64,000 nt of DNA, from positions 8,819-72,818 of the forward strand of contig JAURZV010000047.1 in NCBI GenBank assembly GCA_030653175.1. Direction: 5' to 3'. The notes beneath the pieces were generated by a model. It was given only the letters and a program-made list of their open reading frames with translations. It had not been told where the DNA came from and made no database searches. Source of the DNA: Methylobacter sp. Its GTDB lineage: Bacteria; Pseudomonadota; Gammaproteobacteria; Methylococcales; Methylomonadaceae. Every line of letters starts with the position of its first letter. The first letter of the stretch is position 1. The position numbers and the translations under genes are program-made. Below are positions 40,116-60,896 of the stretch, in pieces.

Positions 40116-40184
40116 AGTAAATATTGAATTGGATTAAGAAATCAGCAAGGAGCCAACGGGGTGCCATTCTGTTTTAAAGTAGCG

Positions 40185-41648: not shown

Positions 41649-41700
41649 ATAAACCACGAAGAAACATACGAATGCTTCCGTATGTTTCTTCGTGGTTTAT
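41649..41700. repeat. CACGAAG-family hairpin, copy B; likely exbD terminator
   Basis: ATAAACCACGAAGAAACATACG (41649-41670) is the perfect reverse complement of 41679-41700, 13 nt downstream of the exbD stop. Confidence 0.8.
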
Positions 41701-41712
41701 GTTGGAAGTGTA

Positions 41713-42123
41713 TTACTGTTTTTCAGTTACGAACGCTATTTTAGCGATCCCGGAGTGTTGCACGGTTGCCATGACTTCGGCGACTTTTGCATAAACGACA
41801 TCTTGATCGGCGTATAAATGCAAGCCGATTTCAGGGTTTTTTAGAAGCTCAGCCTTCAGCGCTGTTTCCAATGCTGCAAGATCCGCGAGTGGCAGCTTAT
41901 TCAGTGTTATGCCTCCCTGCGCATCGATACCGAGCTGTAACGGTTGTTCTTTAATATCCGCTGTAGTCTCGGCGGTTTTAGGTAAAGTAACATGCACGGA
42001 TTGCGTGAGTAACGGCGCGGTCACCAATAAAATAATCACCAGCACTAACATTACATCGACTAGCGGAGTGACATTAATGTCGCTCATTGCTCCTTCGTCT
42101 TCCGATTGCGGTTTAAAAGCCAT
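41713..42123 (-). CDS. exbD: Biopolymer transport protein ExbD/TolR
   Basis: 136 aa, INVTPLVDVMLVLVIILLV.. plus a periplasmic domain, downstream of exbB. Confidence 0.9.
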   Translation of the reverse strand: MAFKPQSEDEGAMSDINVTPLVDVMLVLVIILLVTAPLLTQSVHVTLPKTAETTADIKEQPLQLGIDAQGGITLNKLPLADLAALETALKAELLKNPEIGLHLYADQDVVYAKVAEVMATVQHSGIAKIAFVTEKQ

Positions 42124-42125
42124 GC

Positions 42126-42791
42126 CTATTCCTTACCGTTGACGTTCGCACTTGAGGCGATATGCATAAAACTGACGACAAAATTTTCCAAACCGGCACG
42201 TTGCTGTTTGACTCGGCGCAAGAAAAAGTTATAGGCCAGTACCGCCGGTACGGCGACCGCGATACCGATTGCAGTGGCGACCAATGCGTCGCCGATGGGA
42301 CCGGCCACCACATTAAGACTGGTCGAGCCGCTTGCAGTGATCTCATGCATCGCGTGCATGATGCCCAACACTGTTCCGAACAAGCCGACGAACGGCGCAG
42401 TGCTGCCGATACTGGCAAGCATTGTCAGGCCGCTTTCCATTGCATGTTGCTCTTGCTGCATTTGAACAAGCAGGGAGTGTTCGAGTAATTCAGACGGAAC
42501 GCCGCGATATTTAAGACTCTTGCCCTCAGACTGCTGACTTTCGTTCATCCATGCAAAACCTTGCTGCGCAATCCGCGCTTGCGGCCCTCTGGCTATCTCT
42601 GCCGGTAAAGTTTTTGCCTGCTCCAGATTGGCCGCATCCCAAAACGCCTTGTTAAAGGCCCGATTATAAAAACTATTCTTGGTGAACTGCCAGATCTTGA
42701 AAAGAATCAATGTCCAGGTGACCACTGAGAAAGCCAGCAACGTGTATAAGGTACCGTCGATAATAACTTCTGGCGCAATATGATAGGGCAT
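42126..42791 (-). CDS. exbB: MotA/TolQ/ExbB proton-channel protein
   Basis: 221 aa with three TM helices and the GSTAPFVGLFGTVLGIM motif. Confidence 0.9.
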   Translation of the reverse strand: MPYHIAPEVIIDGTLYTLLAFSVVTWTLILFKIWQFTKNSFYNRAFNKAFWDAANLEQAKTLPAEIARGPQARIAQQGFAWMNESQQSEGKSLKYRGVPSELLEHSLLVQMQQEQHAMESGLTMLASIGSTAPFVGLFGTVLGIMHAMHEITASGSTSLNVVAGPIGDALVATAIGIAVAVPAVLAYNFFLRRVKQQRAGLENFVVSFMHIASSANVNGKE

Positions 42792-42926
42792 TAAGATCTC
42801 CTTTTTTAGTTATTCAAATAAAATTAATGGGTGCAATTATCGAACTGATCGCTTTTTTTAAAGTTCGTGACCACCTGCTTACTTTGTCCTAACAAGGTCA
42901 ATGTAATCCGGTAAAACGCAAACCGA

Positions 42927-43745
42927 TTATCGTGTTAATTTAAATTGCAGCGTCTGAACAGCGCGCTGCTCAACCGCTACACCGTTAACTATTTTTTCTT
43001 TGAAGGTCCATTGATTAATCGCTTTCAACGCAGCCTCGTCAAAGATTTCGGCGGGTTCCGCCTCAACAACTACGGCATTTTCAACTGTACCGCTCGTGGT
43101 AATAGTAAATTCGATTTTAACCCAGCCCTCAATATGACGATTAGCAGCCCGCGCAGGGTACTTGGGAGGAATACGTTCCAATGGAATGACACCGGTACTG
43201 ATTCTCGGTTCACTGCTGACTACAGCAGGAGCAGGCCGACTAACGGATTGTGGCGCTGAAACTGAAGGTGTCGGCGCGGAATTGGAAGGCGCGGGCTTTT
43301 CTTCAGCAATAGTCTGCGGTTTTGGTAGCTCCGCCTGCTTAGGAATAACCGGCATTTTTTTCTTGACCGGCTGTTTGACAGGTTGTTTTTTCGGCGGTTC
43401 AGGTTTTGGCAGCACTGGTTTTGGTGGCGCCGGCGGTGTAATTTCGGCTTTTTGACTCGGCGTAGAAACCAGCGAGACCTCCATGACCATCAGCGATGGC
43501 GTTTTGGGTTTCTCCGTTGGTTTTAAAAGCCAAAGCCCCGCCCATATATGCAACAGCAACACTAAAGTCAACAGTAATCCACCCATAAAACGTGGGTGTT
43601 CTTCGCCGGTTAAGGTTGCAAATAATGATGGTTTTTTTTGCACTAACGGACTCGTCTCGTCACCCGAAGGCTCTAAATTCCGGTCGGCCAGGCCGCCTTC
43701 ATGGCTGTTAAATAAAAACATAGGGGATATTACCTTTTTCAACAT
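42927..43745 (-). CDS. tonB: Energy transducer TonB
   Basis: TM anchor, a Pro-rich spacer (PPAPPKPVLPKPEPPKKQPVKQPVKK) and a C-terminal TonB domain (YPARAANRHIEGWV). Confidence 0.9.
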   Translation of the reverse strand: MLKKVISPMFLFNSHEGGLADRNLEPSGDETSPLVQKKPSLFATLTGEEHPRFMGGLLLTLVLLLHIWAGLWLLKPTEKPKTPSLMVMEVSLVSTPSQKAEITPPAPPKPVLPKPEPPKKQPVKQPVKKKMPVIPKQAELPKPQTIAEEKPAPSNSAPTPSVSAPQSVSRPAPAVVSSEPRISTGVIPLERIPPKYPARAANRHIEGWVKIEFTITTSGTVENAVVVEAEPAEIFDEAALKAINQWTFKEKIVNGVAVEQRAVQTLQFKLTR

Positions 43746-43842
43746 CGATTGTGCATTTGTTATGTTCAGATTCCGGACAAGGAAGCCTTAGCTGTATTTT
43801 ACTCCGCACGGTCACGGCAGTAATTGCGGAAAATGAAAAACT

Positions 43843-44499
43843 TTAAATAGATTGAGGTTGTTTCAGCAATTTAACCCTTGCAAACTGCCAAACCATTGGC
43901 ATGAACGACACAAAAATAATACCCAAAACGATTTTCTCGAAATTGTGTTTGACCCATTCATTCGAGCCGAGAAAATATCCGGTTAAGGTTATGCTCGTAA
44001 CCCATAAGGTTGCGCCGATGATGCAAAAAATAATGTATTTTGAGTATTTCATGCTGCCCGCACCCGCTACGAAGGGGGCAATGGTGCGAATGATCGGGAC
44101 AAAACGGGCCATAATAACGGCTTTGCCTCCATGTTCTTCGTAGAATGCTTCGGTTTGGGTAATGTATTCCCGCTTAAAAAATAAAATCTGTTCCCGTGAT
44201 TTAACGAACTTACTAAAATGCTTGCCGACGAAATGATTGACATTGTCGCCCAGCAAAGCCGCGCTAATCAGCAACGGAATGATGATTTGAATATCCAGTT
44301 TCCCTGTCGATGACGCCAATAGACCCACCGCAAACAGCAACGAATCGCCTGGCAGCAGCGGCATGACGATTAAGCCGGTTTCAACAAAAATTATCGCCGC
44401 CAAAATCACATAAGTAAGCATCTCGTAATGCGCCAGAAAATCTTGCAGCGTCGTCAGAGGATCTTTGAGTAAGTGCAATAAAAAGTAAATAATTTCCAT
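43843..44499 (-). CDS. DedA/VTT-domain membrane protein
   Basis: LPGDSLLFAVGLL..FVPIIRTIAPFVAG are DedA signatures. The start at MEIIYF is preceded by AAGGA. Confidence 0.85.
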   Translation of the reverse strand: MEIIYFLLHLLKDPLTTLQDFLAHYEMLTYVILAAIIFVETGLIVMPLLPGDSLLFAVGLLASSTGKLDIQIIIPLLISAALLGDNVNHFVGKHFSKFVKSREQILFFKREYITQTEAFYEEHGGKAVIMARFVPIIRTIAPFVAGAGSMKYSKYIIFCIIGATLWVTSITLTGYFLGSNEWVKHNFEKIVLGIIFVSFMPMVWQFARVKLLKQPQSI

Positions 44500-44591
44500 A
44501 AACCGGGTCCTTATATCGTTAAAATGAGCAAGCATAAAGTACGCTTCATGCCTAGTCGACTATTTATTATCAATCAGTTTTAAACCGTGTT

Positions 44592-45968
44592 TTACGGCCT
44601 TCCGAATTGGTTACACAAAGTTATCAATACCAGTAGCAACAAAATGCCGATCAGCGACTGTCTTAATATGACCGTCCATACCGTGTCAGTCGTCGGCAAA
44701 GGTTTCATTACGGGCAGCTGCCCATAATCCGACGGCGACATGCCTTGCTTGCCCATGATTCCAGGGACAAAAAACGCCCGCCACCGGTCTTCAAATTGAT
44801 TGGCCGTTTGAATGTATTCGGCATAGCGGGGGGCATCGATACCCGCCAAACGGTCAGCCGTCAATACGGCGGCAAGTCCGGGCGAAAGAGCGGACCAACG
44901 TTCCATAAACTCAAAATGAGTCTTCCTGACTTCATCGAAGCGATACATCAGCGGCCGTACCTTGCTATCAAGCTCCAGGTTCGCGGGCAGACCGGCAACC
45001 TCGCGGGGCGGCTCTTTCAAGGACTTGATGTCAGGATGCGCCTGATACCAGGCTGACAGCAATTCGGCCTGCTGCTTAGAAGTTTGCGCCTGAACACGGC
45101 GAATATCGACAATTGCCTCAAGCCGGGAAGGCATGGATTGTATGCCGTTCGCCGCCCAGCTCAAACCCGCCGGTACCGCAAACGTCGTGACCAACCACAC
45201 GCCTAACAAGCCCACCGCCGCTGCACCCGACGAAACAGGCAACAACAAAAACAACCCTGAAATCGCAATCCACACCCCGGCAAACACGCCGGCAAAAACC
45301 AGCCAATGCGTTGCCGCGTAAAGGGTGGAACCGGAGTCCAGCATAAACGCAAGCAGCGATGCCGCGACGGCAGGCATCAGCACCATAACCAGACGCACGG
45401 CGAGCGCGGCAAATACCAACAGCCAGGGGCGGGGCATTTGCGCGCAAACCAAACGCCACACGCCCCGCTCCCGATCTTCCTGCACCAAGCCGTAAGTGAC
45501 GGCTATCACGGTCAACGGCAACAATAACGCGAGTATGCTTGCAAAATCGAGCAAGCCCAGTTCGCGCAGCAACGGATTGAACAACTGATCGCTGTTGCGG
45601 CCATCGGTATAGCGGCTGCGGGTTGATATGCGCAGTTCGGAACCGAGCAGATCCATTTGCCGCACGCTCAATGCCAAACCGCCGAGCGCCGGAAGACACG
45701 CGGTTGTACTATCAGCCGGCTTGGATGCGTAGTGGCCTTTGCCGATACCGGGTGCATCGTGCATTTCTGTGGGCGCGAATTTATTCGCGTCTATAGCAGC
45801 AGCGCGAATAAATTCGCGCCCACCAAATGCTTTGGCACGAAACTCACTGGCGGCAAGTCCCGACCATATCGCGCTAGCCGCCAACAGAGTAAAGAACGCG
45901 GCAATGACCCACAGATTGACCTGGTTGCGGATGAACCGCAGCCACTCGGCTTGCAACAAACTCATCAT
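44592..45968 (-). CDS. ABC-2-type permease with DUF3526-like domain (second of two)
   Basis: 458 aa with one N-terminal TM helix, a large extracytoplasmic loop, a cluster of TM helices and a C-terminal soluble part. Its start overlaps the upstream permease stop (ATGA). Confidence 0.6.
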   Translation of the reverse strand: MMSLLQAEWLRFIRNQVNLWVIAAFFTLLAASAIWSGLAASEFRAKAFGGREFIRAAAIDANKFAPTEMHDAPGIGKGHYASKPADSTTACLPALGGLALSVRQMDLLGSELRISTRSRYTDGRNSDQLFNPLLRELGLLDFASILALLLPLTVIAVTYGLVQEDRERGVWRLVCAQMPRPWLLVFAALAVRLVMVLMPAVAASLLAFMLDSGSTLYAATHWLVFAGVFAGVWIAISGLFLLLPVSSGAAAVGLLGVWLVTTFAVPAGLSWAANGIQSMPSRLEAIVDIRRVQAQTSKQQAELLSAWYQAHPDIKSLKEPPREVAGLPANLELDSKVRPLMYRFDEVRKTHFEFMERWSALSPGLAAVLTADRLAGIDAPRYAEYIQTANQFEDRWRAFFVPGIMGKQGMSPSDYGQLPVMKPLPTTDTVWTVILRQSLIGILLLLVLITLCNQFGRP

Positions 45969-47377
45969 GGCTTAAGCCTCTTCGCAGAAAACAGCAGCCA
46001 TATCAGCGCGGCGACCAGCCAAGCCAGCAAGACCAGCAGGTCGGCCGGCGCATGATGCAGCGCAAAGCTCACCGAGGGCGGCGTATAACTGAATGCCTTG
46101 ACGCCACCCCAGTCGGAATCATGGCCCAGAGCGCCGCGCTCCGTGCCGTGGCTGCGTTCACGATCCCAATCATCGGTCAGGCCGATAAAGTAATGACGAT
46201 ACTTCTCGGCCGCATCCTCAAAATGTCGCTGATGCGCCAAATCCATGCCTGATAATGTCATGGACACCGAACGCATAGCGATGCTTGGGCCGAGCAGCGA
46301 AGCGATATGAATAAACCGGCTCTGGCGTTCGAACGCATCGCTCAGTCTATCGAAATGCAGGGCGTGGACCCGTTCGGAATAACTGTCATTAAAACTGCGC
46401 TTGAGTGCGGCATACCCCACCGGCAAGTCTTCAACCTGTGCCACGCCGTACTGCTTTAACATTTGATTCTTGAATAAGGCCTCTCGGGCCTGATGATCGC
46501 CATCGTTATCCAAGCCTTGCTGAATGTCTTTTTTAATACCCGCCCAAAACGCCGTAGCTGAGGGTATCGGCACCATCATCTCTGCGGCTGCCGCGCCCAA
46601 TCGCGGCGCAATCAATACGCTACTTGTCCAGAATGCCACTAGGGTAAACAAAGCCAGACGGCTGCTTTTAAAATGGATCGAGGTAGACATTGCCAAGGCC
46701 GCGAATACCGCATAATACATAAAAAAAGTACCGCTCAATGCAGACAGCCTGAGTATATCGTCACCGGCGAGGTCGAAATTTTGATACAGAATAATGATCG
46801 CAACCGCCATTGCCGGCAACAACACCACCATAAAAGCCAGCAACAGACCGATAAACTTGCCCAATAGCAGTCTGGTCGCAGATACCCCCAAACTGTGCAG
46901 CATGCGCAAGGTGCCTAGCTCCCGTTCCTGGGTTACCGCGTTGAAGGCCAGCGCAATGACCAGCAGCGGAAGCAGTGCGTATAACACAAAACCGGCGCTG
47001 GCCTGCCCGAAGCGACCGGCTAAGCCCTGATCGGCCGCCGGACTGAAACGCGCGCCGTTGCGTTTGTGCGGTTCAAGCCAGAGCGTCTGCCCCGTATATT
47101 GTCTCAATCCGGGCTCTACCGATGCCAGTGGCGAATCCGGCTTGAATACATAAATGCCGAAATGCGCCGCCGCATGCGGGTTCTTGACGCCTTGCGTATC
47201 CCATTGTTCTTTGGCGGTTGCGCCAACGGTCTGTTTTTCCAGCTGCATTTGCTGATGTTCGGCGACGGAAGCCAGAAAAAATCCGATCAACACGGCGAAG
47301 ACCGAAAAGGCCAACACCAGCAGCCTTCCGTCCCGCAGCACTGCCAGCAATTCCTTGTGGATAATCGCAATAATCAA
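45965..47377 (-). CDS. ABC-2-type permease with DUF3526-like domain (first of two)
   Basis: 470 aa with the same architecture (MIIAIIHKELLAVLRDGR..QERELGTLRMLHSLGV). It overlaps the ATPase stop by ATGA. Confidence 0.6.
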   Translation of the reverse strand: MIIAIIHKELLAVLRDGRLLVLAFSVFAVLIGFFLASVAEHQQMQLEKQTVGATAKEQWDTQGVKNPHAAAHFGIYVFKPDSPLASVEPGLRQYTGQTLWLEPHKRNGARFSPAADQGLAGRFGQASAGFVLYALLPLLVIALAFNAVTQERELGTLRMLHSLGVSATRLLLGKFIGLLLAFMVVLLPAMAVAIIILYQNFDLAGDDILRLSALSGTFFMYYAVFAALAMSTSIHFKSSRLALFTLVAFWTSSVLIAPRLGAAAAEMMVPIPSATAFWAGIKKDIQQGLDNDGDHQAREALFKNQMLKQYGVAQVEDLPVGYAALKRSFNDSYSERVHALHFDRLSDAFERQSRFIHIASLLGPSIAMRSVSMTLSGMDLAHQRHFEDAAEKYRHYFIGLTDDWDRERSHGTERGALGHDSDWGGVKAFSYTPPSVSFALHHAPADLLVLLAWLVAALIWLLFSAKRLKP

Positions 47378-48099
47378 AGCAGGCCCCGTGCATGCGCCAG
47401 ATATTTGTGCTCCAGCTCATCATGCGCCACGGTGTGCGCATCGAACTCTTCAACCAGACGGCCCGCTTTCATGATGCCGATACGATCTGCGACCTGTTTG
47501 GCATTAAACAGATCATGAGTCGCCATCAGCACCGCCATGCCCAAATCGGCTGCCGCCCGTATCCGCCGGGCAAAATCATTGGCCGCACTGGGATCAAGCC
47601 CGGAGGTTGGTTCATCGAGCAGCATGACTTTCGCCTGTTTTGCCGAAGCGATAGCCAAACCGACTTTCTGGCGCATGCCCTTCGAATAAGTCGAAACACG
47701 CCGATCATGGGCATCGGTTTGCAAGCCTGTATTCATCAGCAAATCGTGCGCATGCTGGCGGGATATGCGGATATTGGCCAACGTACAGAAAAAGCTCAGG
47801 TTTTCCAGGCCGCTCATGTATTCATAGAGCGCAACATTTTCCGGTAAGTACGCCAGCTTGGCGCGAACCACGGTGGGGTTTTGGTCGGGCGATTCGCCAT
47901 CAATAAAGACATTGCCGCCAGTCGGCCGATTGAAACCCAAAAAGGTGTTGATGGTCGAGGTTTTCCCCGCGCCATTGCCTCCCAACAAAGCATAAACGCA
48001 ACCTGCCGGAACCGATAAATCGAGCCCATCAATCGCACGATGGTTTTTATAATTGACCACCAGTTGTCTGGCTTCAAGCAGGGTTTTATTTGGGAACAT
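47374..48099 (-). CDS. ABC transporter ATP-binding protein
   Basis: Walker A GGNGAGKTS, signature YSKGMRQKV and Walker B VMLLDEPTSGLD. Confidence 0.92.
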   Translation of the reverse strand: MFPNKTLLEARQLVVNYKNHRAIDGLDLSVPAGCVYALLGGNGAGKTSTINTFLGFNRPTGGNVFIDGESPDQNPTVVRAKLAYLPENVALYEYMSGLENLSFFCTLANIRISRQHAHDLLMNTGLQTDAHDRRVSTYSKGMRQKVGLAIASAKQAKVMLLDEPTSGLDPSAANDFARRIRAAADLGMAVLMATHDLFNAKQVADRIGIMKAGRLVEEFDAHTVAHDELEHKYLAHARGLL

Positions 48100-48172
48100 A
48101 ATTAATTTTTAAATGATTCGGCTTAAGGTGATTCCCGAGAAAGAACAGCCCATCAAGAATCTGATCCGTAGA

Positions 48173-48246
48173 AAAAAACACGGTCCACGAAAGACACGAA
48201 AAGCACGAAAAATCCCATAACACGATACTTTCCATTTTTTTCGTGT
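48173..48246. repeat. CACGAAG-family palindromic element, copy C
   Basis: GTCCACGAAAGACACGAAAA (48173-48192) is the perfect reverse complement of 48227-48246. It lies between the BNR gene stop and the ABC ATPase start. Confidence 0.85.
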
Positions 48247-48306
48247 CTTTCGTGGACAATTCTTTTGGTGGATTGGGCTGCATGTTGTTTAGCCCGTCCC
48301 ACGACC

Positions 48307-49563
48307 CTACTCATCAATAGGCTTTAATTGATAATCCTGCTGCTGGGTTTTCCAGGAAAGATATATCTTCTGCCCGTCACTGACCAAAAATGGCTGATCG
48401 CCGGACTGGACGGTTTGGGCAATCACTTCCGGCTTCGACCGGCTTTTGCCGTCGTCGGCGGATTTGATCAGCTTGATAACATTGTTGGTGCCGTCGAACT
48501 CCTGCCAAACCACATTGACCCGTGCTCCTAAAGCCAGCACATGCGGATGGCCTGCGCCTTCCTTGCCGAAATTAACCGGCGTGGAAAAATGCCGCCCGGA
48601 ATCGGTCGAGTAGGCATAAAACAGTCCCTGACTGGTGGGCGAATTGCTGAACCATACCGCATGATAAATGCCGGAATCGGAAATTGACAGGCCGGGGCCG
48701 TGATGCGGACAGGCATCGATTTTCCAGTTATCCTGACCTAAACGGTGGGTATCGCCGGGGGTATTCCAATCGTTGAATTTAACCAGTGCGTGATCGCGGA
48801 TGCCGCCTTCAAAAACATGCCGCCAGGTGATGACCGGCGTATTGTCAGGCGCTATTGCAGTATCCAATCGGCAGCACTGACAGGTATGGGTGGCGATTCT
48901 TTTATTGGGATAAAAATGCTGTCCGCCATCGTCCGACCAGCTGTAATACAGCGAAGAGCCCTCAAATTTTTTGCCTGCTTTTTTTGCTTCTTCAACATCG
49001 CGGGCATCCAGCCAGGCAATAAAGATTTCGCCGTTCTTGCCGATCGCCATGCTGTCGAAGCGATGACTGATAATGTCCGGATTATCATTAACAGTAACCG
49101 GAGTGGAAAAATGCTGTCCGCCGTCAGTCGAACGGCTAAAGCGGATGTGACCGCTATGACGGCCTTCCAGCTTCAATGTCCAAGTCAAATAAATATTGCC
49201 CTTTGCATCCGGCTTTATTTTCGGGCGATATTCGCCTTTGGCTTCTATTTTTTCGGCGACGGCATTGACCATCACCGGCGCGGTAAAGCTGAGCCCCTTA
49301 TCGTCCGATGATTGCACATAAACGTGATCATTATTCATCCAGGCAATCCATAGCACGCCCTTGCTGTCGAACGCGGCGCTTATCGTTTCGGCGCATATGT
49401 TGGCTGGCGGCGCCTTGGAATCAGCGCAAGCGCTTTTTGCTGCTGCCGAGTGATGATGTGCGTGCTGTTGTTGGGCATCGTCTGCGAGTTTTACAGTCGT
49501 GTCATTTGCACAGCCGGAGACTGCCAGCGTTGCAAGAAATAGAAAAGAAGTAAGGGATTTCAT
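48307..49563 (-). CDS. BNR/Asp-box repeat beta-propeller lipoprotein with a His/Cys-rich N-terminal linker
   Basis: Lipobox LAVSGC followed by the linker DDAQQQHAHHHSAAAKSACADSKAPPANICAE. There are five Asp-box-like repeats: SDDKGLSF, STDGGQHF, SDDGGQHF, STDSGRHF and SADDGKS. Confidence 0.75.
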   Translation of the reverse strand: MKSLTSFLFLATLAVSGCANDTTVKLADDAQQQHAHHHSAAAKSACADSKAPPANICAETISAAFDSKGVLWIAWMNNDHVYVQSSDDKGLSFTAPVMVNAVAEKIEAKGEYRPKIKPDAKGNIYLTWTLKLEGRHSGHIRFSRSTDGGQHFSTPVTVNDNPDIISHRFDSMAIGKNGEIFIAWLDARDVEEAKKAGKKFEGSSLYYSWSDDGGQHFYPNKRIATHTCQCCRLDTAIAPDNTPVITWRHVFEGGIRDHALVKFNDWNTPGDTHRLGQDNWKIDACPHHGPGLSISDSGIYHAVWFSNSPTSQGLFYAYSTDSGRHFSTPVNFGKEGAGHPHVLALGARVNVVWQEFDGTNNVIKLIKSADDGKSRSKPEVIAQTVQSGDQPFLVSDGQKIYLSWKTQQQDYQLKPIDE

Positions 49564-49587
49564 AATAATGCCTAAGAAATATGGGTA

Positions 49588-49648
49588 GGGTGGGCAAACG
49601 TCTTTTTGTTTGCCCACCGCTTCTGGTGGGCAGATAAAGCCTGCCCAC
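49588..49648. repeat. Tandem pair of GGTGGGCA-family REP hairpins
   Basis: GGGTGGGCAAACG..TTTGCCCACC (49588-49618) and GGTGGGCAGATAAAGCCTGCCCAC (49625-49648) lie between the TBDR stop and the BNR start. Confidence 0.8.
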
Positions 49649-49656
49649 TACAATGC

Positions 49657-52101
49657 TTAATAATTATACTTCAACTCGGCAAAATAAGTGCGTGAAGGGA
49701 AAGGGTGAAATAACCAGACTTCCTGATTGCTGACGTTATCAATACCCGCAGAAGCGCTGACTTGCTTGGTGATTTGATATTTGGTGCGCAAATCGACAAT
49801 GAAGTAAGCGGTACCGCCCGATCCAGAAGTTCCGGGATTGATATCGCTGTTGTTCAATTGGCTAAACTGCGGGCTACTGTAACGGCCGCTTACCGAGGTG
49901 GTCAACTTGTCGGTCGGACGATAGGCAATGGTTGCGCTGGCGCGCCACTCGGGAACCCTGGGCTGGCGTTTGCCGGTTGAAGGCTGGTTGGCGTAAGGGT
50001 TGGCGGCAGTAACCGCCGTAGCAGCGGCAGCCGCATCTCCAGCAGCGTTCTCGGTAATTCTGGAATCAGCCCAAGTGGCGCTACCGGAAAGGTCAATGCC
50101 CTGTATGCCTACATCGCTGGCTTCGCCTGCAAATTCGACACCGTAAGTTTGAGTTTCGCCGACATTTTGAATTGTACTGGCAGTACCTCCAGTGGGTAAA
50201 AAGCCTTGCTGCGTAAAAATGGCATCCTTTACCCGCTCCTGAAATAAGCTAAGCCGCAATTTGCCCTGATCCAGAAAGTATTCGCCGGACAGCTCGGAAG
50301 ACAGCGCTTCTTCGGGTTTAAGGTTGGGATTTCCATTGATAAGGCTAATAGGGGCAGTAGTCGTAGTTGCAGTTTGAAACAACTCTGTCACGGTAGGAAA
50401 GCGATAGGCCTGGCCGACGGACAAGCCTGTTTGTACTCGATCCAAAGGCTTCCAGGTCAACTTGGCCTTGGGCGAAAATTGCAGGTCATTGCGGTCTGCC
50501 TGATTGATCGACTTGAGTGTGGCGGGAGTGCCTGCTAAAGCAGCATTATAGCCATCGAAAGCATGCCAGTTTTCCAGGCGGCCGCCCAGCGTCAGGTTCC
50601 AGTCTTTAGTAAAGTCCCAGGCATCCTGTAGCCAATAGCCTTCGGTTTGGGTCTTGCCTTGCGAATCGGATCTAATACTGCCAACGGTGCTGGTTTGCCA
50701 GTTGCTAACGGTATATTGCGGATTATCCAGATTATATAAGTCGTGGTGAAAACCGAAGCTGACCTCATGCTTGCCCAGCAGATCGACGCCGGGGCGCCAT
50801 ATACCCTTGGCATCGGCGGTTTGCCAGCCGGTTCCGGTCAAGCTGGTAACTGTGCCTGTACCGTTGTTAGCGGCTTGCGCAGGCGTTTGTGTCGATGTGC
50901 GGCTAAGATCCTCGCCGTATTCGACCACGCTGCCTGCCAAATCCCAGTCGAATACGCCGCCGGTGTCGGATTTTAGATTCATGCCATGCGACCAGTGCAT
51001 TTGTTCTGCCCTGGTTTCTGCAAAACTGGCAGCATAGACATTTCCACCCATTTTAACGTTGCCGCTATTTACTACAGCGCCGGTATTGGCATTGCGCAGA
51101 AAACTGTTAAAACCGGCCTTATTGTCGTTCTGCCATAGTCCCAGCGTATAGGCCGCATGGATGGTCGGGGTGAGGTCATAGCCGAATTTCCATTTGAAGT
51201 TATCCTGCACGGTGTGATTGAGCGCAGACTCGCCCAGCACTTGCGCGGGAACACCCGCCCCATTCAAGTTGGCAACCGCTCCTGTTACATCCGTCGCCGC
51301 AGTTAAAGCAGCAGTTTTGGCAGCAGCAGTAGCGTAAGTCGTTGCAATAGGATTCACATAGGAGATAGGCTGGCTATGACTATCCAGATGGCTCACATCA
51401 AAACGAAATGACAGGTCTTTGTAACGATCACCGACATTAAAAGAATATTCCTGTGAGTCATAAGTCTTTTTCTTGCCATAAAAACCAAAATCCTGCCAAG
51501 CCGATTTTATTTCGCCGCCGGCCTCAAACTTTTCCGGCATACGCGTAGTGATGTCAATCACGCCGCCGATCGAATTGCCTGAATACGCCGCTGAAAAAGG
51601 CCCATACATCACATCAACCCGTTCAATTTCCGAGGGCGACACCATATTCCAGCGCGGCGCACCGGTGGGGCCGTTATTATTACCAAGCAGGGAAGACAGT
51701 ATGATGCCATCGGCATAAATCAGGCCGCGGGCGCTGGCGGCTGTACCCGAAGTGCGCCAGCCCACCGGTGCACCGGTGTCGCCGATATAGCGTTTACGCA
51801 CTTGAATGCTGGGCAAATATTTAATCGTATCCTCGGCATTCATGGAATTGATGGTGTTATCGATTTTTTCGCGGGTGACGCTTTCTGTCGTCGTCGGCAG
51901 CTTGTATCTTTCCTTGGCAGTCGGCTTTATTTTCTCGGTTACCGTCATGTCTGCCATCACCGCTTTGGATTTATCCGCGGGGGCTTTTTTTCCGTTAACA
52001 TTTTGCCTGGTTTCGGCCGTAGCGAGCGGGGTTGCTAATATCAGCAAGCAGATCAAAGCCCGTCTGGAGTTGAGCGGATAAGGCGGTTTGGAATGTGTCA
52101 T
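49657..52101 (-). CDS. TonB-dependent receptor (downstream paralogue)
   Basis: 814 aa with a signal peptide, a TonB-box-like DMTVTE, a plug domain (RVDVMYGPFSAAYSGNSIGGVIDITT) and a 22-strand-type barrel ending YFAELKYNY. An AGGAGG Shine-Dalgarno sequence is present. Confidence 0.9.
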   Translation of the reverse strand: MTHSKPPYPLNSRRALICLLILATPLATAETRQNVNGKKAPADKSKAVMADMTVTEKIKPTAKERYKLPTTTESVTREKIDNTINSMNAEDTIKYLPSIQVRKRYIGDTGAPVGWRTSGTAASARGLIYADGIILSSLLGNNNGPTGAPRWNMVSPSEIERVDVMYGPFSAAYSGNSIGGVIDITTRMPEKFEAGGEIKSAWQDFGFYGKKKTYDSQEYSFNVGDRYKDLSFRFDVSHLDSHSQPISYVNPIATTYATAAAKTAALTAATDVTGAVANLNGAGVPAQVLGESALNHTVQDNFKWKFGYDLTPTIHAAYTLGLWQNDNKAGFNSFLRNANTGAVVNSGNVKMGGNVYAASFAETRAEQMHWSHGMNLKSDTGGVFDWDLAGSVVEYGEDLSRTSTQTPAQAANNGTGTVTSLTGTGWQTADAKGIWRPGVDLLGKHEVSFGFHHDLYNLDNPQYTVSNWQTSTVGSIRSDSQGKTQTEGYWLQDAWDFTKDWNLTLGGRLENWHAFDGYNAALAGTPATLKSINQADRNDLQFSPKAKLTWKPLDRVQTGLSVGQAYRFPTVTELFQTATTTTAPISLINGNPNLKPEEALSSELSGEYFLDQGKLRLSLFQERVKDAIFTQQGFLPTGGTASTIQNVGETQTYGVEFAGEASDVGIQGIDLSGSATWADSRITENAAGDAAAAATAVTAANPYANQPSTGKRQPRVPEWRASATIAYRPTDKLTTSVSGRYSSPQFSQLNNSDINPGTSGSGGTAYFIVDLRTKYQITKQVSASAGIDNVSNQEVWLFHPFPSRTYFAELKYNY

Positions 52102-52135
52102 AGAGTCCTCCTAAAAAATTATTATTATAAGTAGC

Positions 52136-52164
52136 GCTTAAAAGCAGCACATCCCTGTGCCGCT
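52136..52164 (-). terminator. Intrinsic terminator between the two TonB-dependent receptor genes
   Basis: On the minus-strand RNA, GCGGCACA-GGGA-UGUGCUGC (one G-U pair) is followed by UUUUAAG, 26 nt after the upstream receptor stop. Confidence 0.55.
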
Positions 52165-52189
52165 CAAAAAACTATGTGATACGTTTCGG

Positions 52190-54553
52190 TTAATATTTCA
52201 GCGACGCACTAACAAAATAAGTGCGTTGCGGGTAAGGATGATTTTCAAAGGCATTGGCATCAAAAACGTTATCGATCCCCGCTGAGATGGTGCTTTTCAG
52301 TTTTGGGTTAATCGGCAATTGATAAGAGGTTTTTAAATCGACAAAGGTAGATTCATCGGTACCCCCCATAACATTTGCCGCGGTGTCGGTGTTAGCCAAA
52401 GTTTGAAACGAGTCGCTGCGATAACGGACGCCTACTGACGCTGCCCATGGCTGTGTAATATGGTAAGTTGCCGAGCCGTTGATTTGCAGTTGGGGCAGGC
52501 GATCCCACTCTTTGCCGGTGTAGTTGATGCTGTTAGTTCCGATAGGGTTATGCTTGGTGATCTGTTTATTCATGATCGTGGTATTCGCCATTAAATCCAC
52601 TGGCAGGTTAAACACCTCGTTCTGTTGAAAAGTCAGATCCACGCCAATGGCTTCTGTTTGATCAATCGGCTGAAAGGTTGTTGTAGTCTGGCCGTTAATG
52701 GTTACCTGAGTGCTGTTAATCTCATTGTTGATTCGATCAAAAAAGAAATTGGCGCGCAGATAACCTCTGGGAATATCGTATTGGGTCATGAAGTTATGGA
52801 AATAACCCGCCTCAGGCCCCAAGCCGGGAGCCGAAAAAGTTGCGCTGTTAAGCCTGGATAAGCTGGCGAACATTTCTTCGGCAATCGGGAAACGATATGC
52901 TTTGGAAAACGAATAGCGGAAAGTCCAGTTGTCGGGCGAATATTCCAGCGACGCTTTAGGCGAAATGCGGGAGGCATCGCGATCGGCATAGTTTTGAATA
53001 TTGTTTGTCGCGCCAAAAGTATGCACATGACCGTCAATCGCTTGCCAATGGTCAAATCGTCCTCCGGCCATTACGCTCCAGTCGGGCAGAAACCGCCATT
53101 CCAACTGCGAAAAAGCGCTGTTGGTTTGAGTTGCGCCGCCGCTGTCGCTTCTTTTAATATCGGCAGTTCCGGCCTTATAGTTATTGCTGTCGTAAACATC
53201 CAGGTTCAGGCTGGCGTGATTAAACTGATAGCCGCCCATAAAGGACAAATCATCCCTGCCCATAAATTTGTCGGTCGCCAACTTCAGGTCGTAAGTGGCC
53301 CACCAGGGTTTTTCATCGGAAACCTGGCCTTTGTTTTGGCTTAGCGGATGGTTGGGATTGAGATTTGAACTGATGGTTCTGTCCTTGAACGCGTCGTAAT
53401 AACTGGCGGTCGTATCGATGCTCCAGTTATCCGAGATTTTGCCTTTTAAACCCAAGCCATAGTTTAGCGCCTGGCGCTCCGAGTCGCTGACCGAGAAAAC
53501 CGAACCTGGAACGGCAAACCGTTTCCCGCCGGCTGTTCTGTAGTTTTGACTGGCTGACAGTCCTGCAGCGGTGGCTCCTCCCCATACTTTATTGCCTGCC
53601 GCATCCCTTAATAAACTGTTCGGGTCGTCAACTTTTCCTACGCGATCTTCGTAGGCAATGGTAAAACGCCCTTGCAGCTCTTCGGTAAAGTCATAAGCGA
53701 ATTTGGCCTTGAACAGATCCGTCGTTTGCTGGGCAACGCCGTTGTCGCCGTAGGCAATCGCCGGGGCTTCGGTCGTTGTCTGGTAACCCTCGCCTCCGGT
53801 CACTGCGGTTCCGCCTGCTGCCGTAGTTAAAGCGGCGGCATTGATGGTCTGCGGCTGCCCCTCGTTTTCAAAACGGTTATAAGAGGCCCAAACGCTGAAC
53901 TTATCGATCCGGTCGCCTGCCGAAATAAAGGTTTTATAACCCATTAACGTTTCATTCCGCCCCGACCGATGGACATCCTGAAACATGCCGGTGGCATCCA
54001 TTTGGGCTTCGAATTTTTCCGGCATTTTAGTGTTCAGGTTAATCACACCGCCCATCGAATTGCCGCTGTATTGCGACGAAAACGGGCCGTAAAGCACTTC
54101 CGCCGAGTCGATTTCGCTGGGCGACACCATCGACCATCTGGGCGCTCCGCTGAAGGTAGTACGCAACGGATTGTGCAATGGCATCCCATCGGCATAAACC
54201 ATGCTGTGCGCAGTTTGGAACGAATTTGAGCTGCGTATGCCCAAAGTGCCGTTCGGATCACCCATAAACCGTTTGCGGATCAATACGCCTGGAGCATATC
54301 TGATAGTATCCTCAACCGTTGTCGCATTAATTTTTGTTTTAACATCCGCTGCATCGATAGTATAGGTAGGTGTTGCCTTGGCGGTATCCGGAAACTTTCT
54401 ATCGGTCGTAGTGCCGTAGGTCACCATCTCCTCGCCCTGATATTTATCGCTTCTTGTCTGAGCTTGTTTATCTGTCTTTTTAGTCTTGGCGGGTTCGGCT
54501 GCAACTCCGCAGCCTAAATAAGTTATTCCCAGCAATAGTAGATACTTTTTCAT
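52190..54553 (-). CDS. TonB-dependent receptor (upstream paralogue)
   Basis: Signal peptide MKKYLLLLGITYLGCGVAA, plug domain (AEVLYGPFSSQYSGNSMGGVINLNT) and a barrel ending YFVSASLKY. The start is taken at the ATG at 54553. Confidence 0.9.
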   Translation of the reverse strand: MKKYLLLLGITYLGCGVAAEPAKTKKTDKQAQTRSDKYQGEEMVTYGTTTDRKFPDTAKATPTYTIDAADVKTKINATTVEDTIRYAPGVLIRKRFMGDPNGTLGIRSSNSFQTAHSMVYADGMPLHNPLRTTFSGAPRWSMVSPSEIDSAEVLYGPFSSQYSGNSMGGVINLNTKMPEKFEAQMDATGMFQDVHRSGRNETLMGYKTFISAGDRIDKFSVWASYNRFENEGQPQTINAAALTTAAGGTAVTGGEGYQTTTEAPAIAYGDNGVAQQTTDLFKAKFAYDFTEELQGRFTIAYEDRVGKVDDPNSLLRDAAGNKVWGGATAAGLSASQNYRTAGGKRFAVPGSVFSVSDSERQALNYGLGLKGKISDNWSIDTTASYYDAFKDRTISSNLNPNHPLSQNKGQVSDEKPWWATYDLKLATDKFMGRDDLSFMGGYQFNHASLNLDVYDSNNYKAGTADIKRSDSGGATQTNSAFSQLEWRFLPDWSVMAGGRFDHWQAIDGHVHTFGATNNIQNYADRDASRISPKASLEYSPDNWTFRYSFSKAYRFPIAEEMFASLSRLNSATFSAPGLGPEAGYFHNFMTQYDIPRGYLRANFFFDRINNEINSTQVTINGQTTTTFQPIDQTEAIGVDLTFQQNEVFNLPVDLMANTTIMNKQITKHNPIGTNSINYTGKEWDRLPQLQINGSATYHITQPWAASVGVRYRSDSFQTLANTDTAANVMGGTDESTFVDLKTSYQLPINPKLKSTISAGIDNVFDANAFENHPYPQRTYFVSASLKY

Positions 54554-55094
54554 TGTTTTAATTTTTATAGTCATGGGTAATCTGTTCATAACAGCACATT
54601 GCATGCCAAGCCACCAAGCTCATAGCAATACCGACTATCAGGACTACCGCACTTAACTTTTTAATTTATCGTAATCAATTGCTTACTCTTTAGTTGTGAA
54701 TTAATTTCCATTCTTCTTAATTTTAATGAGCTTGTCCTGTACGGACTATGCGTTTTTATCGGGGCTGTGTTTTAATGAAAGTGAGTCATATGACCTATTT
54801 TTAGTGTGTTAAATAACACAGTTTAATTAAATAACGACCTTAATCAGCTGGCTACTATGACTCTGTTTCCAAAAATATGGCTTTCTCTATATAAAAAGTA
54901 GCGCTATCTCCCATAAAATATTGATTGTATTCTTATCGGTTTTATTAAGCGGTCAATTTGATTTTGCCCGGAACCAATTGGCATGACTTGAGGGGTAGCC
55001 GTGTTTAAGGCGGCAAGAACTCTAACAAAACAATTTTAAAATCGGTTAAAATAATAAATTCTGACAATAATCCTGTAACGGGTTGATAGCTTTC

Positions 55095-56183
55095 ATGCAT
55101 ACAAAATATAACACTGATGACTTGAGAATTTGCGGGACTAAAGAAGTCATAGCCCCTGTTCAGGTTCATACTGAAATGCCGATTAGCGAGGCTGCGGCGC
55201 AAACGACTGCACTGGCCCGGCAGGACATCCACAAAATACTGACCGGTCTGGATGACCGGCTGGTCGTGGTGGTGGGCCCTTGCTCCATTCATGACCCGAT
55301 AGCCGCGCATGAATATGCCCGACTTTTGAAAGCGGTTAAAGATGAGTTAGCAGATGATCTGGTGATCGTGATGCGGGTCTATTTTGAGAAACCGCGCACC
55401 ACGGTGGGCTGGAAAGGCCTGATTAACGACCCTGACCTGGATTCCAGTTTTAATATCAACAAAGGCTTGCGCATAGCCAGACGCTTGTTGCTGGATGTGA
55501 ATGAAGCGGGCGTTCCGGCCGCAACCGAATACCTGGATTTAATCACGCCGCAATATGTTTCGGACCTGATCGCCTGGGGCGCAATCGGCGCCAGAACCAC
55601 CGAAAGTCAGGGACACCGTGAATTGGCTTCGGGCGTATCTTGCCCTGTCGGCTTTAAAAACTCCACCGATGGCACGATCAAAATCGCCATTGATGCGATA
55701 GGCGCGGCGATGAGCCCGCATCACTTTATCTCGCTGAACAAAGCCGGTCATTCGGCTATTTTCTCAACCACCGGAAATGAAGATGTGCATATCATTTTAA
55801 GAGGCGGCAATGATCGCCCTAATTATGATGCAGTCAGTGTGGAGCAGGTCGCTGAAGGCTTGGCGAATGCTGAGCTAAAGCCGAATATCATGATTGATTT
55901 CAGTCATGCCAATAGTTTGAAACAATGCCAGCGGCAATTGATAGTCGGCGATGATGTCGCCGGACAAATCGCCAACGGCGACCATCGAATTATGGGCGTG
56001 ATGATCGAGAGCCATCTTAAGGCAGGCAGTCAAAAGGTTGTTGATGGACAGCCGTTAGTCTACGGCCAAAGCATTACCGATGCCTGTTTGTCCTGGGATG
56101 ATACCGTTCCGTTGTTAAGAGAGCTGGCGCAAGCGGTACAAAAACGCAGAACCGTCGACACCAGCCGGAGTTTAAGCAAATGA
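55095..56183 (+). CDS. aroG: 3-deoxy-7-phosphoheptulonate (DAHP) synthase, class I
   Basis: [52 protein letters not shown]. Which isozyme this is (F/G/H) cannot be determined. Confidence 0.9.
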
Positions 56184-57157
56184 TAGTTTATGTTAACGGC
56201 GAAACCCGTGACTGCGCTGAAAACAGCCGGGTTGCCGATGTGGTTACCACCTTGGGGTTAACCGGCAAAAAAATTGCGATTGAATTGAATAAGGAAATTT
56301 TGCCGTTCCAGCAATACGATACCCAGGCGCTACAGGCCGGAGATCGCCTGGAAATTGTGCATGCGATTGGCGGCGGGCAGGATGATTCTTTCATGCTTGC
56401 CGGGGTAAAGTATCATTCAAGATTGCTGGTCGGCACCGGCAAATATAAGGATATGGAAGAAACCCGCCTGGCCATTGAGGCCAGCGGTGCGCAAATTGTA
56501 ACGGTGGCGATTCGCCGCACCAATATCGGCCAAAATCCGGGCGAGCCTAATTTGCTGGATGTCATTTCACCGGACAAATACACCATTCTGCCCAATACTG
56601 CCGGTTGCTATACCGCAGAAGATGCGGTAAGAACCTGTCGTTTGGGCAGAGAATTGCTCGGCGGCCACAAGCTAGTCAAGCTGGAAGTATTGGCCGACCA
56701 AAAAACCTTGTTTCCCGATGTGGCGGAAACGTATATAGCCGCCGAACTGCTGGTTAAAGACGGCTTTGATGTGATGGTGTACACCAATGACGACCCGATT
56801 GCCGCCAAAAGACTGGAAGATATCGGTTGCGTGGCGGTAATGCCGTTGGCCGCGCCGATCGGTTCGGGTTTGGGTGTGCGCAATCCCTATAACATTTTGA
56901 CTATCGTTGAAAATGCCAATGTACCCATTTTGGTCGATGCCGGTGTCGGTACGGCTTCCGATGCCGCCATTGCGATGGAGCTGGGTTGTGACGGGGTATT
57001 GATGAATACCGCGATTGCCGCCGCTAAAAATCCGATATTGATGGCTTCGGCCATGCGCAAAGGCATCGAAGCCGGCAGGGAAGCGTTTTTAGCGGGACGC
57101 ATGCCGCGCAGGCGTTTTGCTTCCGCATCATCGCCAATAGACGGTTTGTTTTTTTAA
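56180..57157 (+). CDS. thiG: In-frame ThiS-ThiG fusion (sulfur carrier plus thiazole synthase)
   Basis: Residues 1-66 are ThiS-like, ending HAIGGG (56375-56377). There is no stop codon. The linker QDDSF is followed by [25 protein letters not shown].., which is ThiG. The ATG overlaps the aroG stop (ATGA). Confidence 0.85.
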
Positions 57158-59864: not shown

Positions 59865-59968
59865 GGTACGCCTTTTATTGCTAACATGATTTTTTAAGTT
59901 AGTCGAAATTATCGGTTTGTGCTCCTGCATCCATGCTCACGCTCCTTACCTACATCCGTGTAGACAAT

Positions 59969-60841: not shown

Positions 60842-60896
60842 TCACCACGAAGACACGAAGGACACGAAAAAATAAAACTTCGTGTCTTCGTGGTGA
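60842..60896. repeat. CACGAAG-family palindromic element, copy D; likely hemW terminator
   Basis: TCACCACGAAGACACGAAG (60842-60860) is the perfect reverse complement of 60878-60896. A U-rich tract follows on the minus strand. Confidence 0.85.

Follow-up and report, generated by a model that had tools for sequence, protein, structure and literature searches.

How is copper routed to particulate methane monooxygenase in gammaproteobacterial methanotrophs that make no methanobactin? The question is raised by a block of ten genes on the minus strand of a 64,000-nucleotide stretch of Methylobacter DNA (contig JAURZV010000047.1), the whole of which we call the window. In order of transcription, the block encodes two TonB-dependent receptors (TBDR1 and TBDR2), a beta-propeller lipoprotein, an ATP-binding cassette (ABC) ATPase, two permeases with the domain DUF3526, a DedA protein, and TonB, ExbB and ExbD (Table 1). 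The same question of copper supply arises for those ammonia and nitrite oxidizers that have the propeller family. On the evidence set out below, we lean towards regarding the block as a composite locus by which a Methylobacter methanotroph acquires copper and handles it in the periplasm, and we infer that copper is the best-supported substrate. An earlier description, made from the letters of the window alone (the sequence-only reading), had listed these ten genes, and the list of open reading frames (ORFs), Pfam and NCBIfam all agree with it. It had also held that the substrate could not be inferred; here we differ, since several independent lines point to copper.

The propeller lipoprotein matches no Pfam or NCBIfam family at 1e-3, and our literature search found no paper on its family. 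From its likely start at 49563 the protein has a lipobox (MKSLTSFLFLATLAVSGC), a His-rich tether (QHAHHHS), a cysteine pair (C46/C57), and the motifs C228-x-C230-C231 and C285-P-H-H-G-P. Its AlphaFold model, with a mean predicted local distance difference test (pLDDT) score of 83.6, is all-beta and sialidase-like, with a disordered tether of 44 residues (1-44), and the translation contains the Asp-box-like SxDxGxxF repeats of a six-bladed sialidase-type propeller. When the model is compared with the PDB by Foldseek, it meets only generic sialidases and lectins (TM 0.45-0.6, 9-16% identity); relatives of the protein give faint matches to BNR_2 and carry the source name 'sialidase family protein'. 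The lipobox, the BNR_2 matches and the model all bear out the earlier designation of a BNR-propeller lipoprotein. Membership in the GH33 sialidases is not supported: the protein has the sialidase fold, yet it shows no family-level sequence match and no FRIP/RIP motif in its translation, and a profile search of the PDB reached at best E 0.005, with one Asp-box covered.

Relatives of the propeller were collected by a word-indexed search and by an exhaustive search of representatives, the latter yielding 360 cluster representatives below 1e-30. Scanning a single genome of each species with a 15-sequence alignment gave at least 583 loci. We retained the best 80 (47 Methylococcales-like and 33 others), whose ORFs were matched to the ten window proteins and clustered de novo. 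Carriers of the propeller include Methylococcales, Thioalkalispiraceae, Woeseiaceae, Thiohalomonas, Halorhodospira, Nitrotoga, Gallionellaceae, Sulfuricella and other Nitrosomonadales. The best homologues of the window's own protein are Methylobacter proteins (87-92% identical), and the host is therefore a gammaproteobacterial methanotroph.

What is conserved across this family suggests a metal site. In an alignment of 57 diverse members, extending down to 28% identity, C228, C230 and C231 (CxCC) and C285 are invariant, and P286, H287, P290, H258 and H301 are kept in at least 90% of members; residues C285 to P290 form the motif CPHHGP. Compared with the propeller core, the tethers of 108 representatives are enriched 2.2-fold in His, 2.5-fold in Met and 3.7-fold in Cys. 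A Cx6-12C pair usually stands just ahead of the propeller, and HEGH, HxH and Met-rich runs, for example GMPGMPGMSGMGDMHG, SMVGMDMTAMDMSAMHH and HSMHMHM, are frequent. Met-rich runs of this kind are a hallmark of periplasmic Cu(I) proteins. The signal peptides are of the Sec or lipoprotein type, with a signal resembling that of twin-arginine translocation (Tat) in one of the 57 members, which argues against a cofactor inserted in the cytoplasm, such as an iron-sulfur cluster.

The propeller also has a recurrent redox partner. Directly 3' of the propeller gene, 25 of 29 non-methanotroph loci have a gene for an exported thioredoxin-like protein of ~165 amino acids (aa), with a W-x-x-C-P-x-C motif and weak matches to thioredoxin folds. 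In 22 of the 23 longer propeller representatives (~510-650 aa), a thioredoxin-like CxxC domain is fused to the C-terminus of the propeller itself, an independent confirmation of the functional pairing seen in gene order. The presence of such a partner implies that the propeller cysteines must either stay reduced or perform a reduction. There is precedent for both motif and partner in copper proteins: CopG binds a tetranuclear copper (Cu4) cluster through CxCC, and before ScoI and CoxB are metallated, their copper-binding cysteines undergo reduction by TlpA, a periplasmic thioredoxin (PMC7558416).

It is important to distinguish the genes that travel with the propeller from those that do not. 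A receptor of the TBDR1/TBDR2 family is no more than two genes away from the propeller gene in 34 of 41 assessable Methylococcales-like loci and in 24 of 29 others, and ExbB/ExbD genes are found near it in 23 of 47 and 11 of 33, respectively. Among 40 assessable Methylococcales-like loci, 11 have DedA directly 3' of the propeller gene, and in 7 more it comes 3' of the ABC module. In two distant Methylococcales (L001 and L028), DedA follows the propeller with every other accessory gene missing; L001, a metagenome-assembled genome, reads receptor-receptor-propeller-propeller-DedA and nothing more. The conserved core is thus one or more receptors, the propeller, and either a thioredoxin or DedA; a TonB system usually accompanies it, and TonB-ExbBD sets of two different types adjoin this core in different strains.

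The ATPase and its two DUF3526 permeases, by contrast, are an accessory, an optional addition to the core and not a required part of it. They occur in 8 of 40 assessable Methylococcales-like loci, all of them Methylobacter-like. In each of these 8 the module lies directly 3' of the propeller gene, including L012 and L027, which otherwise differ in receptor complement and TonB system. In five close Methylobacter relatives (L008, L009, L014, L015 and L018), the propeller gene leads straight to DedA-TonB-ExbB-ExbD and the ABC module is missing. We therefore abandon the earlier idea of a single ten-gene system, all the more so because elsewhere the module has receptor-ABC operons of its own. The sequence-only reading had proposed that the neighborhood of DUF3526 genes be checked for receptors and propellers. 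Receptors do co-occur with these genes; none of the operons examined outside methanotrophs has a propeller gene, and the 8 Methylobacter-like loci have both.

One tie between the core and copper comes from related loci. Beside the receptor-propeller pair, 10 loci have a further receptor gene, cluster c12 (Methylobacter L007, L010 and L012; Woeseiaceae L050; Nitrotoga/Gallionellaceae L059, L069, L071, L073, L074 and L083). The sole sequence matches of this receptor in the PDB are OprC entries (E 1.7e-19), with ACPNRMD of OprC aligned to ACANHMN. The copper site of OprC is CxxxM-HxM (PMC7558416), and both motifs occur at the right spacing in 6 of the 10 members. OprC-like receptors with CxxxM and HxM are those of L007, L010, L012, L050, L073 and L074.

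Regulatory sequences connect this OprC-like receptor with the core. An alignment of eight Methylobacter loci, made over the region 5' of the first receptor gene, has four conserved blocks. The best conserved is a palindrome, the putative activator site AAACTGTGTTATTTAACACA, which precedes the predicted transcription start by ~230 nt and is the sole match to TGTTA-N2-TAACA in the window; a second palindrome (GTCATATGAC) adjoins it. Between activator site and promoter is a block, TAAG..ATTGATTAC, with an IHF-like site (AATCAATTGCTTA) that we take, by eye, to match the IHF consensus WATCAANNNNTTR. The block TTGGCATGCAATGTGCT, at the predicted promoter, has the GG-N10-GC spacing of sigma-54 promoters; with both strands counted, only 4 sites in the 64-kb window, this one among them, match the sigma-54 consensus at 10 or more of 12 positions. 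Because the longer TBDR1 ORF has its ATG within this conserved promoter, we place the start of TBDR1 at 54553, as the sequence-only reading had done. The element recurs 5' of the first receptor gene in ~20 Methylococcales loci, and in five Thioalkalispiraceae and Woeseiaceae loci (L048, L050, L052, L053 and L058) it stands 5' of exbB, there the first gene of the cluster. In three of the latter (L050, L053 and L058), we also observed, at a distance of 70-90 nt upstream from the sigma-54 element, tandem 16-bp palindromes of the type TGTCTGATATCAGACA, 20 bp apart; the architecture is kept there with another activator site. Elsewhere in the window, a second sigma-54-like -24/-12 element, TGGCACCCCGTTGGCT, lies at 40151-40166 (-), 36-51 nt upstream of the start of kup (38229-40115).

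In the three Methylobacter loci with an OprC-like gene (L007, L010 and L012), that gene is preceded by the activator site of TBDR1, with a sigma-54 promoter downstream of the site. The site reads AACTGTGTTATTTGACA...GGCATATG and, in L012, is a perfect palindrome (AAACTGTGTTATATAACACAGTTT); the palindrome GYNATATGNC is kept there as well. Given the common activator site and sigma-54 promoter, the receptor-propeller operon and the OprC-like copper receptor appear, as far as their upstream sequences can tell, to be co-regulated as one regulon. We also examined whether the activator site is of the NifA type (TGT-N10-ACA) and rejected so specific an assignment: several orthologous sites have TAT in place of TGT, so that the conserved core is TGTTA-N2-TAACA. 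The window has no ORF of the GAFTGA type for an enhancer-binding protein, and only two unrelated candidates appeared across 84 loci. In metagenomes, the activator-site pattern gave 5 matches, none leading into cluster genes, with a fixed 16-nt spacer that was too strict. There is no canonical Fur or Zur box in the block's intergenic regions, and none upstream of seven DUF3526 operons. The earlier statement that no regulator is visible thus holds for a Fur box and fails for the conserved sigma-54 promoter, the activator site and the IHF-like site. The spaces that separate TBDR1, TBDR2 and the propeller gene showed no intrinsic terminator, and therefore the three genes probably form one transcript.

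A second connection with copper runs through the ABC module. Searched against the PDB with phmmer, the ATPase matches ABCA proteins and NosF (7o0y_B, E 9.3e-34), which is ranked among ABCA-type nucleotide-binding domains. Permease 1 matches PF12679 at E 1.2e-22, and its sole sequence match in the PDB is NosY (E 0.005). Its AlphaFold model, based on 30 homologues, is all-helical (pLDDT 82.3). NosY chains of the NosDFY, NosDFYL and NosDFY-NosZ complexes take the first 11 places among its Foldseek matches (TM to target 0.46-0.71), ahead of ABCG and ABCA proteins. These results sustain the NosDFY analogy that the sequence-only reading had drawn. From hydropathy and the positive-inside rule, we predict that each permease has six membrane helices, with the 98-aa loop 1 and the ~175-aa DUF3526 segment, which separates helices 5 and 6, in the periplasm. 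The propeller is therefore not the sole periplasmic component, as had been supposed, for both permeases are predicted to expose ~280 residues each. Three histidines in loop 1 of permease 1 are invariant: H68 and H72 in HPHxAAH, and H104 in WLEPHKRN. Both permease genes overlap their upstream neighbor by 4 bases, as previously noted. In permease 2, we also observed a perfect 21-nt inverted repeat (GTGGGCGCGAATTTATTCGCG and its complement) at 45769-45823, in frame within the part that codes for periplasmic loop 1. The window, L006 and L007 have GREFIRAAAIDANKFAPT at this place, and L003, L005, L016, L012 and L027 have LQPQHQTGNSQVRA; the repeat looks like a palindromic element inserted into the coding sequence and tolerated there.

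Outside methanotrophs, operons of the form receptor-ATPase-DUF3526-DUF3526 are found in Comamonas, Hymenobacter, Blastomonas, Eleftheria, Xanthomonas oryzae, Cupriavidus, Hydrogenophaga, Paracidovorax and Roseateles. Their genes often overlap, their receptors belong to differing subfamilies, and none of them includes a propeller gene; in Methylomonas LL1 and Methylospira, the ABC/DUF3526 genes stand without a receptor. Our literature search found no paper on DUF3526, and the locus may still be called an uncharacterized TonB-dependent system of uptake or trafficking, as it was before. In 5 of the 6 annotated betaproteobacterial DUF3526 operons examined, the receptor gene is directly preceded by a small ORF resembling CruR, in which a signal peptide and C-x-W-C are followed, after 45-50 residues, by RGPP, with the stop 1-8 residues beyond it. 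CruR (DUF2946), as shown in Bordetella pertussis, is a copper-sensing leader ORF that works through CxxC and RAPP and heads copper homeostasis operons (PMC9426467), and DUF2946 is cofit with a copper receptor (bioRxiv 10.1101/072470). The CruR-like ORF of Eleftheria passes Pfam DUF2946, that of L085 (Comamonas) falls outside it in a Pfam scan, and those of L098, L100 and L102 have no Pfam family recorded, so that the CruR family may be wider than its Pfam model. The DUF3526 operon of Xanthomonas oryzae has no leader ORF.

The two receptors share 30% identity. TBDR1 reaches no curated NCBIfam cut-off; the best PDB match of TBDR2 is PhuR, over the plug region only. As mature proteins, both are free of cysteine. 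In a receptor tree, TBDR1 belongs to clade B, and TBDR2 to clade A together with the Nitrotoga, Gallionellaceae and Sulfuricella loci; neither falls together with the receptors that DUF3526 operons of other phyla encode. Therefore, no receptor can be singled out as partner to the ABC module.

These observations suggest the following mechanism. The core operon TBDR1-TBDR2-propeller would be transcribed from the sigma-54 promoter, with an enhancer-binding protein encoded elsewhere acting at the palindromic upstream site. The cysteine-free receptors would import copper, free or on a borrowed ligand, through TonB-ExbBD, with the dedicated TonB-ExbB-ExbD set as the presumed energizer. Having Ala at +2, the lipoprotein is, under the E. 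coli sorting rule, probably anchored in the outer membrane. The propeller might use its flexible His-rich tether to capture the metal, hold it at a putative Cys3/His site (CxCC and CPHH), and possibly reduce it. In the ABC complex, a NosF-like ATPase would be joined to two NosY-like permeases, with their DUF3526 domains turned towards the periplasm. Cytoplasmic ATP could drive the large periplasmic domains in the manner of NosDFY, so as to strip or pass on the metal, presumably through contact with the propeller, or to move it across the inner membrane. DedA may act as an inner-membrane route or helper. The sequence-only reading had left two possibilities: the hand-off of a metal or cofactor, or the secretion of a chelator that the receptors recapture. 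The former fits better, as no gene for biosynthesis or for export across the outer membrane is present in the window; the ORFs we scanned agree with the earlier remark that biosynthetic genes are absent.

Several points weigh against this copper reading. All of the arguments for copper are indirect. The window contains no OprC-like gene, no CruR-like ORF on either strand and no other recognizable copper gene. TIGR01778, the TonB-copper model, is not among the matches of TBDR1 and TBDR2, from which the CxxxM-HxM site of OprC is missing. Control of the core by sigma-54 is predicted from sequence. The conserved propeller cysteines could be structural disulfides, which are usual in the periplasm, and CxCC, which is also the zinc/cobalt motif of COG0523 chaperones, leaves the metal undecided when read by itself. 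The same architecture might therefore serve another thiophilic metal (zinc, cobalt or nickel), with the propeller as a Cys/His metallochaperone, a reading that we consider unlikely. Its case rests further on two DUF3526 operons in zinc-type surroundings: that of Hydrogenophaga lies directly after ZnuCBA-like genes, and that of Cupriavidus has an ABC/FtsX/DUF3299 set downstream, which we take to resemble the zinc-regulated PA4064-4066 type. Among NCBIfam models, moreover, TBDR1 and TBDR2 score best, far under cut-off, against the haem/transferrin type, a group that presumably also includes ZnuD-like zinc receptors. Yet no Zur box lies 5' of TBDR1 or of the seven DUF3526 operons, the Met-rich tether motifs are typical of Cu(I) and not of Zn, five DUF3526 operons have CruR-like leaders, the OprC-like receptor appears co-regulated with the cluster, and permease 1 is structurally related to NosY only. 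Quite improbable, in our judgment, is iron or siderophore piracy, in which the receptors would import ferric complexes, the propeller and thioredoxin would free the iron reductively, and the ABC-2 transporter would recycle the empty ligand. A thioredoxin partner suits reductive release, iron systems typically have a TonB-ExbBD set of their own, and the receptors of the Hymenobacter and Eleftheria DUF3526 operons pass the siderophore-receptor model TIGR01783 (272 and 339 bits, respectively); however, the Eleftheria operon is itself headed by a DUF2946/CruR ORF. There is also no Fur box in the cluster's intergenic regions or upstream of the DUF3526 operons, and control is predicted to run through sigma-54; no periplasmic binding protein, FeoB or siderophore esterase is present; and Cys/Met-rich motifs are unusual in iron handling.

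The methanotroph host brings to mind lanthanide uptake of the PedA1A2BC/Lut kind, feeding the methanol dehydrogenase XoxF. Lanthanide systems of Pseudomonas putida and Methylorubrum pair an ABC-2 type transporter with a periplasmic beta-propeller, as the block does, and the ATPase has a match to TIGR03864, the lanthanide/pyrroloquinoline quinone (PQQ) type. That match, however, reaches 106.9 bits against a cut-off of 302.25; the Cys/His/Met ligands of the BNR-like propeller are chemically unfit for hard Ln3+; none of the window ORFs scanned is a xoxF, ped or lanmodulin gene; and the propeller family is common in Nitrotoga, Gallionellaceae, Thioalkalispiraceae and Woeseiaceae. We give lanthanides very little credence. 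A different kind of alternative is that the core, the ABC/DUF3526 module, DedA and TonB-ExbBD are independent units, neighbors by chance in some Methylobacter strains. The functional tie between module and core is indeed weak, as the module is missing from close relatives and a repetitive extragenic palindromic (REP)-like element separates it from the propeller gene; its presence in just 8 of 40 loci, its standing alone in Methylomonas LL1 and Methylospira, and the two types of TonB-ExbBD set all accord with mere adjacency. But the module occupies the identical spot 3' of the propeller in all 8 loci, L012 and L027 included, outside methanotrophs it is nearly always in an operon with a TonB-dependent receptor, and DedA follows the propeller in L001 and L028 without the other accessory genes. 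Chance proximity thus strikes us as unlikely.

If we retain copper as the substrate, a broader proposal may be stated, though we hold it only tentatively and think it doubtful: that the propeller family and the DUF3526 permeases together define a widespread, unrecognized route of periplasmic copper supply. In that case, the Sec-exported CxCC/CPHH propeller would be a new kind of cuproprotein, a chaperone or Cu(II) reductase, kept reduced by a dedicated thioredoxin domain and receiving its metal straight from its own TonB-dependent receptor, and its hosts would be oxidizers of methane, ammonia, nitrite, iron and sulfur. The DUF3526 permeases and NosF-like ATPase would be a second NosDFY-style machine for copper transfer, outside the assembly of nitrous-oxide reductase, and in methanotrophs this machine would feed particulate methane monooxygenase. 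Were this true, mechanotransmission of the NosDFY type would be a general principle of periplasmic copper trafficking, beyond the maturation of nitrous-oxide reductase. Apart from this proposal, the locus supplies concrete candidates for the question with which we opened: two receptors, a Cys/His propeller with its redox partner, a NosFY-like ABC complex, and a sigma-54 region with a defined activator site. It also yields a first functional hypothesis for DUF3526, and ties that domain to the characterized copper-sensing CruR leader ORFs.

The remaining features are collected in Table 1. The genes for TonB, ExbB and ExbD adjoin one another and have the domains of a TonB-ExbB-ExbD energizer, with Pfam E-values of 2.6e-20 (TonB_C), 2.2e-34 (MotA_ExbB) and 4.5e-28 (ExbD). 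DedA passes PF09335 (62.5 bits against a threshold of 33.9) and falls just short of NF008102 (200.7 bits against a cut-off of 236). The hairpin 3' of exbD is probably the end of the block. The core of the REP-like element, CCACGAAAGACACGAAA, has 6 matches in the window, in several intergenic regions, against 0.12 expected by chance; positions at which it occurs are 36584-36600, 48185-48255 and 60853-60869.

Table 1. Features of the ten-gene block and its upstream region, in window coordinates, followed by genes of related loci in the coordinates of each locus.
Feature	Position	Strand	Basis
Ten-gene block	41713-54604	-	ORF list; families by Pfam and NCBIfam
Upstream activator site, palindrome AAACTGTGTTATTTAACACA	54805-54824	-	Best-conserved block of upstream alignment
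Second palindrome GTCATATGAC, adjoining activator site	54785-54794	-	Conserved as GYNATATGNC
IHF-like site AATCAATTGCTTA, between activator site and promoter	54671-54685	+	Conserved block TAAG..ATTGATTAC
Sigma-54 type -24/-12 promoter TGGCATGCAATGTGCT (GG-N10-GC)	54593-54608	-	Upstream alignment and consensus scan
TBDR1, 787 aa from MKKYLLLLG start	52190-54553 (ORF to 54604)	-	Plug and barrel domains (Pfam)
TBDR2, 814 aa	49657-52101	-	Plug and barrel domains (Pfam)
Propeller lipoprotein, uncharacterized BNR-like family	48307-49563 (ORF to 49617)	-	Translation, AlphaFold
REP-like inverted repeat, spacer between propeller and ABC ATPase genes	48174-48266	.	38-nt arms, 79% complementary
ABC ATPase, ABC-2/ABCA/NosF type	47374-48099	-	ABC_tran (Pfam)
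Permease 1, NosY-like ABC-2 domain with DUF3526 insertion	45965-47377	-	PF12679 and PF12040
Permease 2, divergent paralogue with DUF3526	44592-45968	-	Pfam; 24% identity to permease 1
DedA/VTT-domain inner-membrane protein	43843-44535	-	PF09335
TonB	42927-43745	-	TonB_C (Pfam, NCBIfam)
ExbB	42126-42791	-	MotA_ExbB (Pfam, NCBIfam)
ExbD	41713-42123	-	ExbD (Pfam, NCBIfam)
Perfect 22-nt inverted repeat 3' of exbD	41649-41700	.	Inverted-repeat search
OprC-like receptor genes	L007 1871-4153; L010 1371-3599; L012 4633-6996		
CruR-like ORFs	L085 5525-5875; L098 4637-5017; L100 2553-2954; L102 2457-2885		

The flanks of the block and the other window ORFs that we scanned are of a housekeeping nature; among them are kup, a CitMHS transporter, DAHP synthase, thiSG, ilv genes, glycogen phosphorylase and cstA. 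The ORFs scanned include no apparent gene for biosynthesis, copper, lanthanides or regulation. An Rfam search at gathering thresholds found neither a riboswitch nor any other RNA element in the whole window, and a plasmid collection held no near match that would suggest a plasmid origin for the block. Some further features of the window are recorded here for completeness. ThiS and ThiG domains are fused in a single 325-aa ORF (56180-57157, +), a 662-aa ORF with a dynamin-family GTPase domain lies at 57942-59930 (-), and a GC-rich patch at 20001-22000 (0.58, against ~0.45 for the window) overlaps the cstA gene (20031-22100).

Finally, we compare the block with known systems. PedA1A2BC/Lut shares with it the association of an ABC-2 type transporter, a periplasmic beta-propeller and a TonB-dependent receptor in a C1-utilizing bacterium. 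Ped/Lut clusters have a YVTN propeller and a solute-binding protein. The propeller of the block is instead BNR-like and the block has no solute-binding protein; TIGR03864 falls short, the window has no PQQ dehydrogenase, and the Cys/His/Met ligands are unsuited to lanthanides. The relation to OprC/NosA (PDB 6fok) is through the OprC-like gene beside the receptor-propeller cluster in 10 related loci; TBDR1 and TBDR2 differ from OprC in being cysteine-free and without a TIGR01778 match, and the window lacks an OprC-like gene. With TlpA-ScoI/CopG (PMC7558416), the block's family shares CxCC, as in the Cu4 site of CopG, and a periplasmic CxxC thioredoxin-like partner, as in TlpA. This likeness is one of motif and logic only, since the block's protein is a propeller and not a thioredoxin fold, and in Methylobacter DedA takes the place of the thioredoxin partner as the next gene.

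The CruR operons, of which Bordetella bp2923-bfrG-bp2921 is an example (PMC9426467), are likewise operons of TonB-dependent import tied to copper. Five betaproteobacterial operons with homologues of the block's ABC/DUF3526 genes begin with CruR-like ORFs, and AhpC_TSA thioredoxin-fold genes are found among the members of CruR operons (PMC9426467), recalling the thioredoxin partner of the propeller. On the other hand, the window has a sigma-54 promoter in place of a CruR-like ORF, ABC genes go unmentioned in PMC9426467, and the PepSY_TM partners are missing from the block.

The nearest comparison for the ABC module is NosDFY-NosL (PDB 7o0y, 7znq and 7qba), with which the block shares a NosF-type ATPase, a NosY-type permease (permease 1), a lipoprotein with a probable metal site beside an ABC-2 complex, and the lack of a solute-binding protein. 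There are nevertheless several differences. NosD, NosL and nosZ are absent from the Pfam matches of the block and of the window ORFs scanned, the block's lipoprotein is a BNR-like propeller and not a NosL fold, and in place of a NosY homodimer there are two unlike permeases. Each of these has a DUF3526 insertion of ~175 aa, predicted to be periplasmic and helical in the model of permease 1, and the ABC module is coupled to TonB-dependent import. By analogy, the ABC part of the block may work like NosDFY-NosL, although it is not a member of that system. The locus as a whole belongs to a familiar type, in which metal is acquired through TonB and chaperoned in the periplasm; it contains two families, the propeller and DUF3526, for which we found no experimental study.

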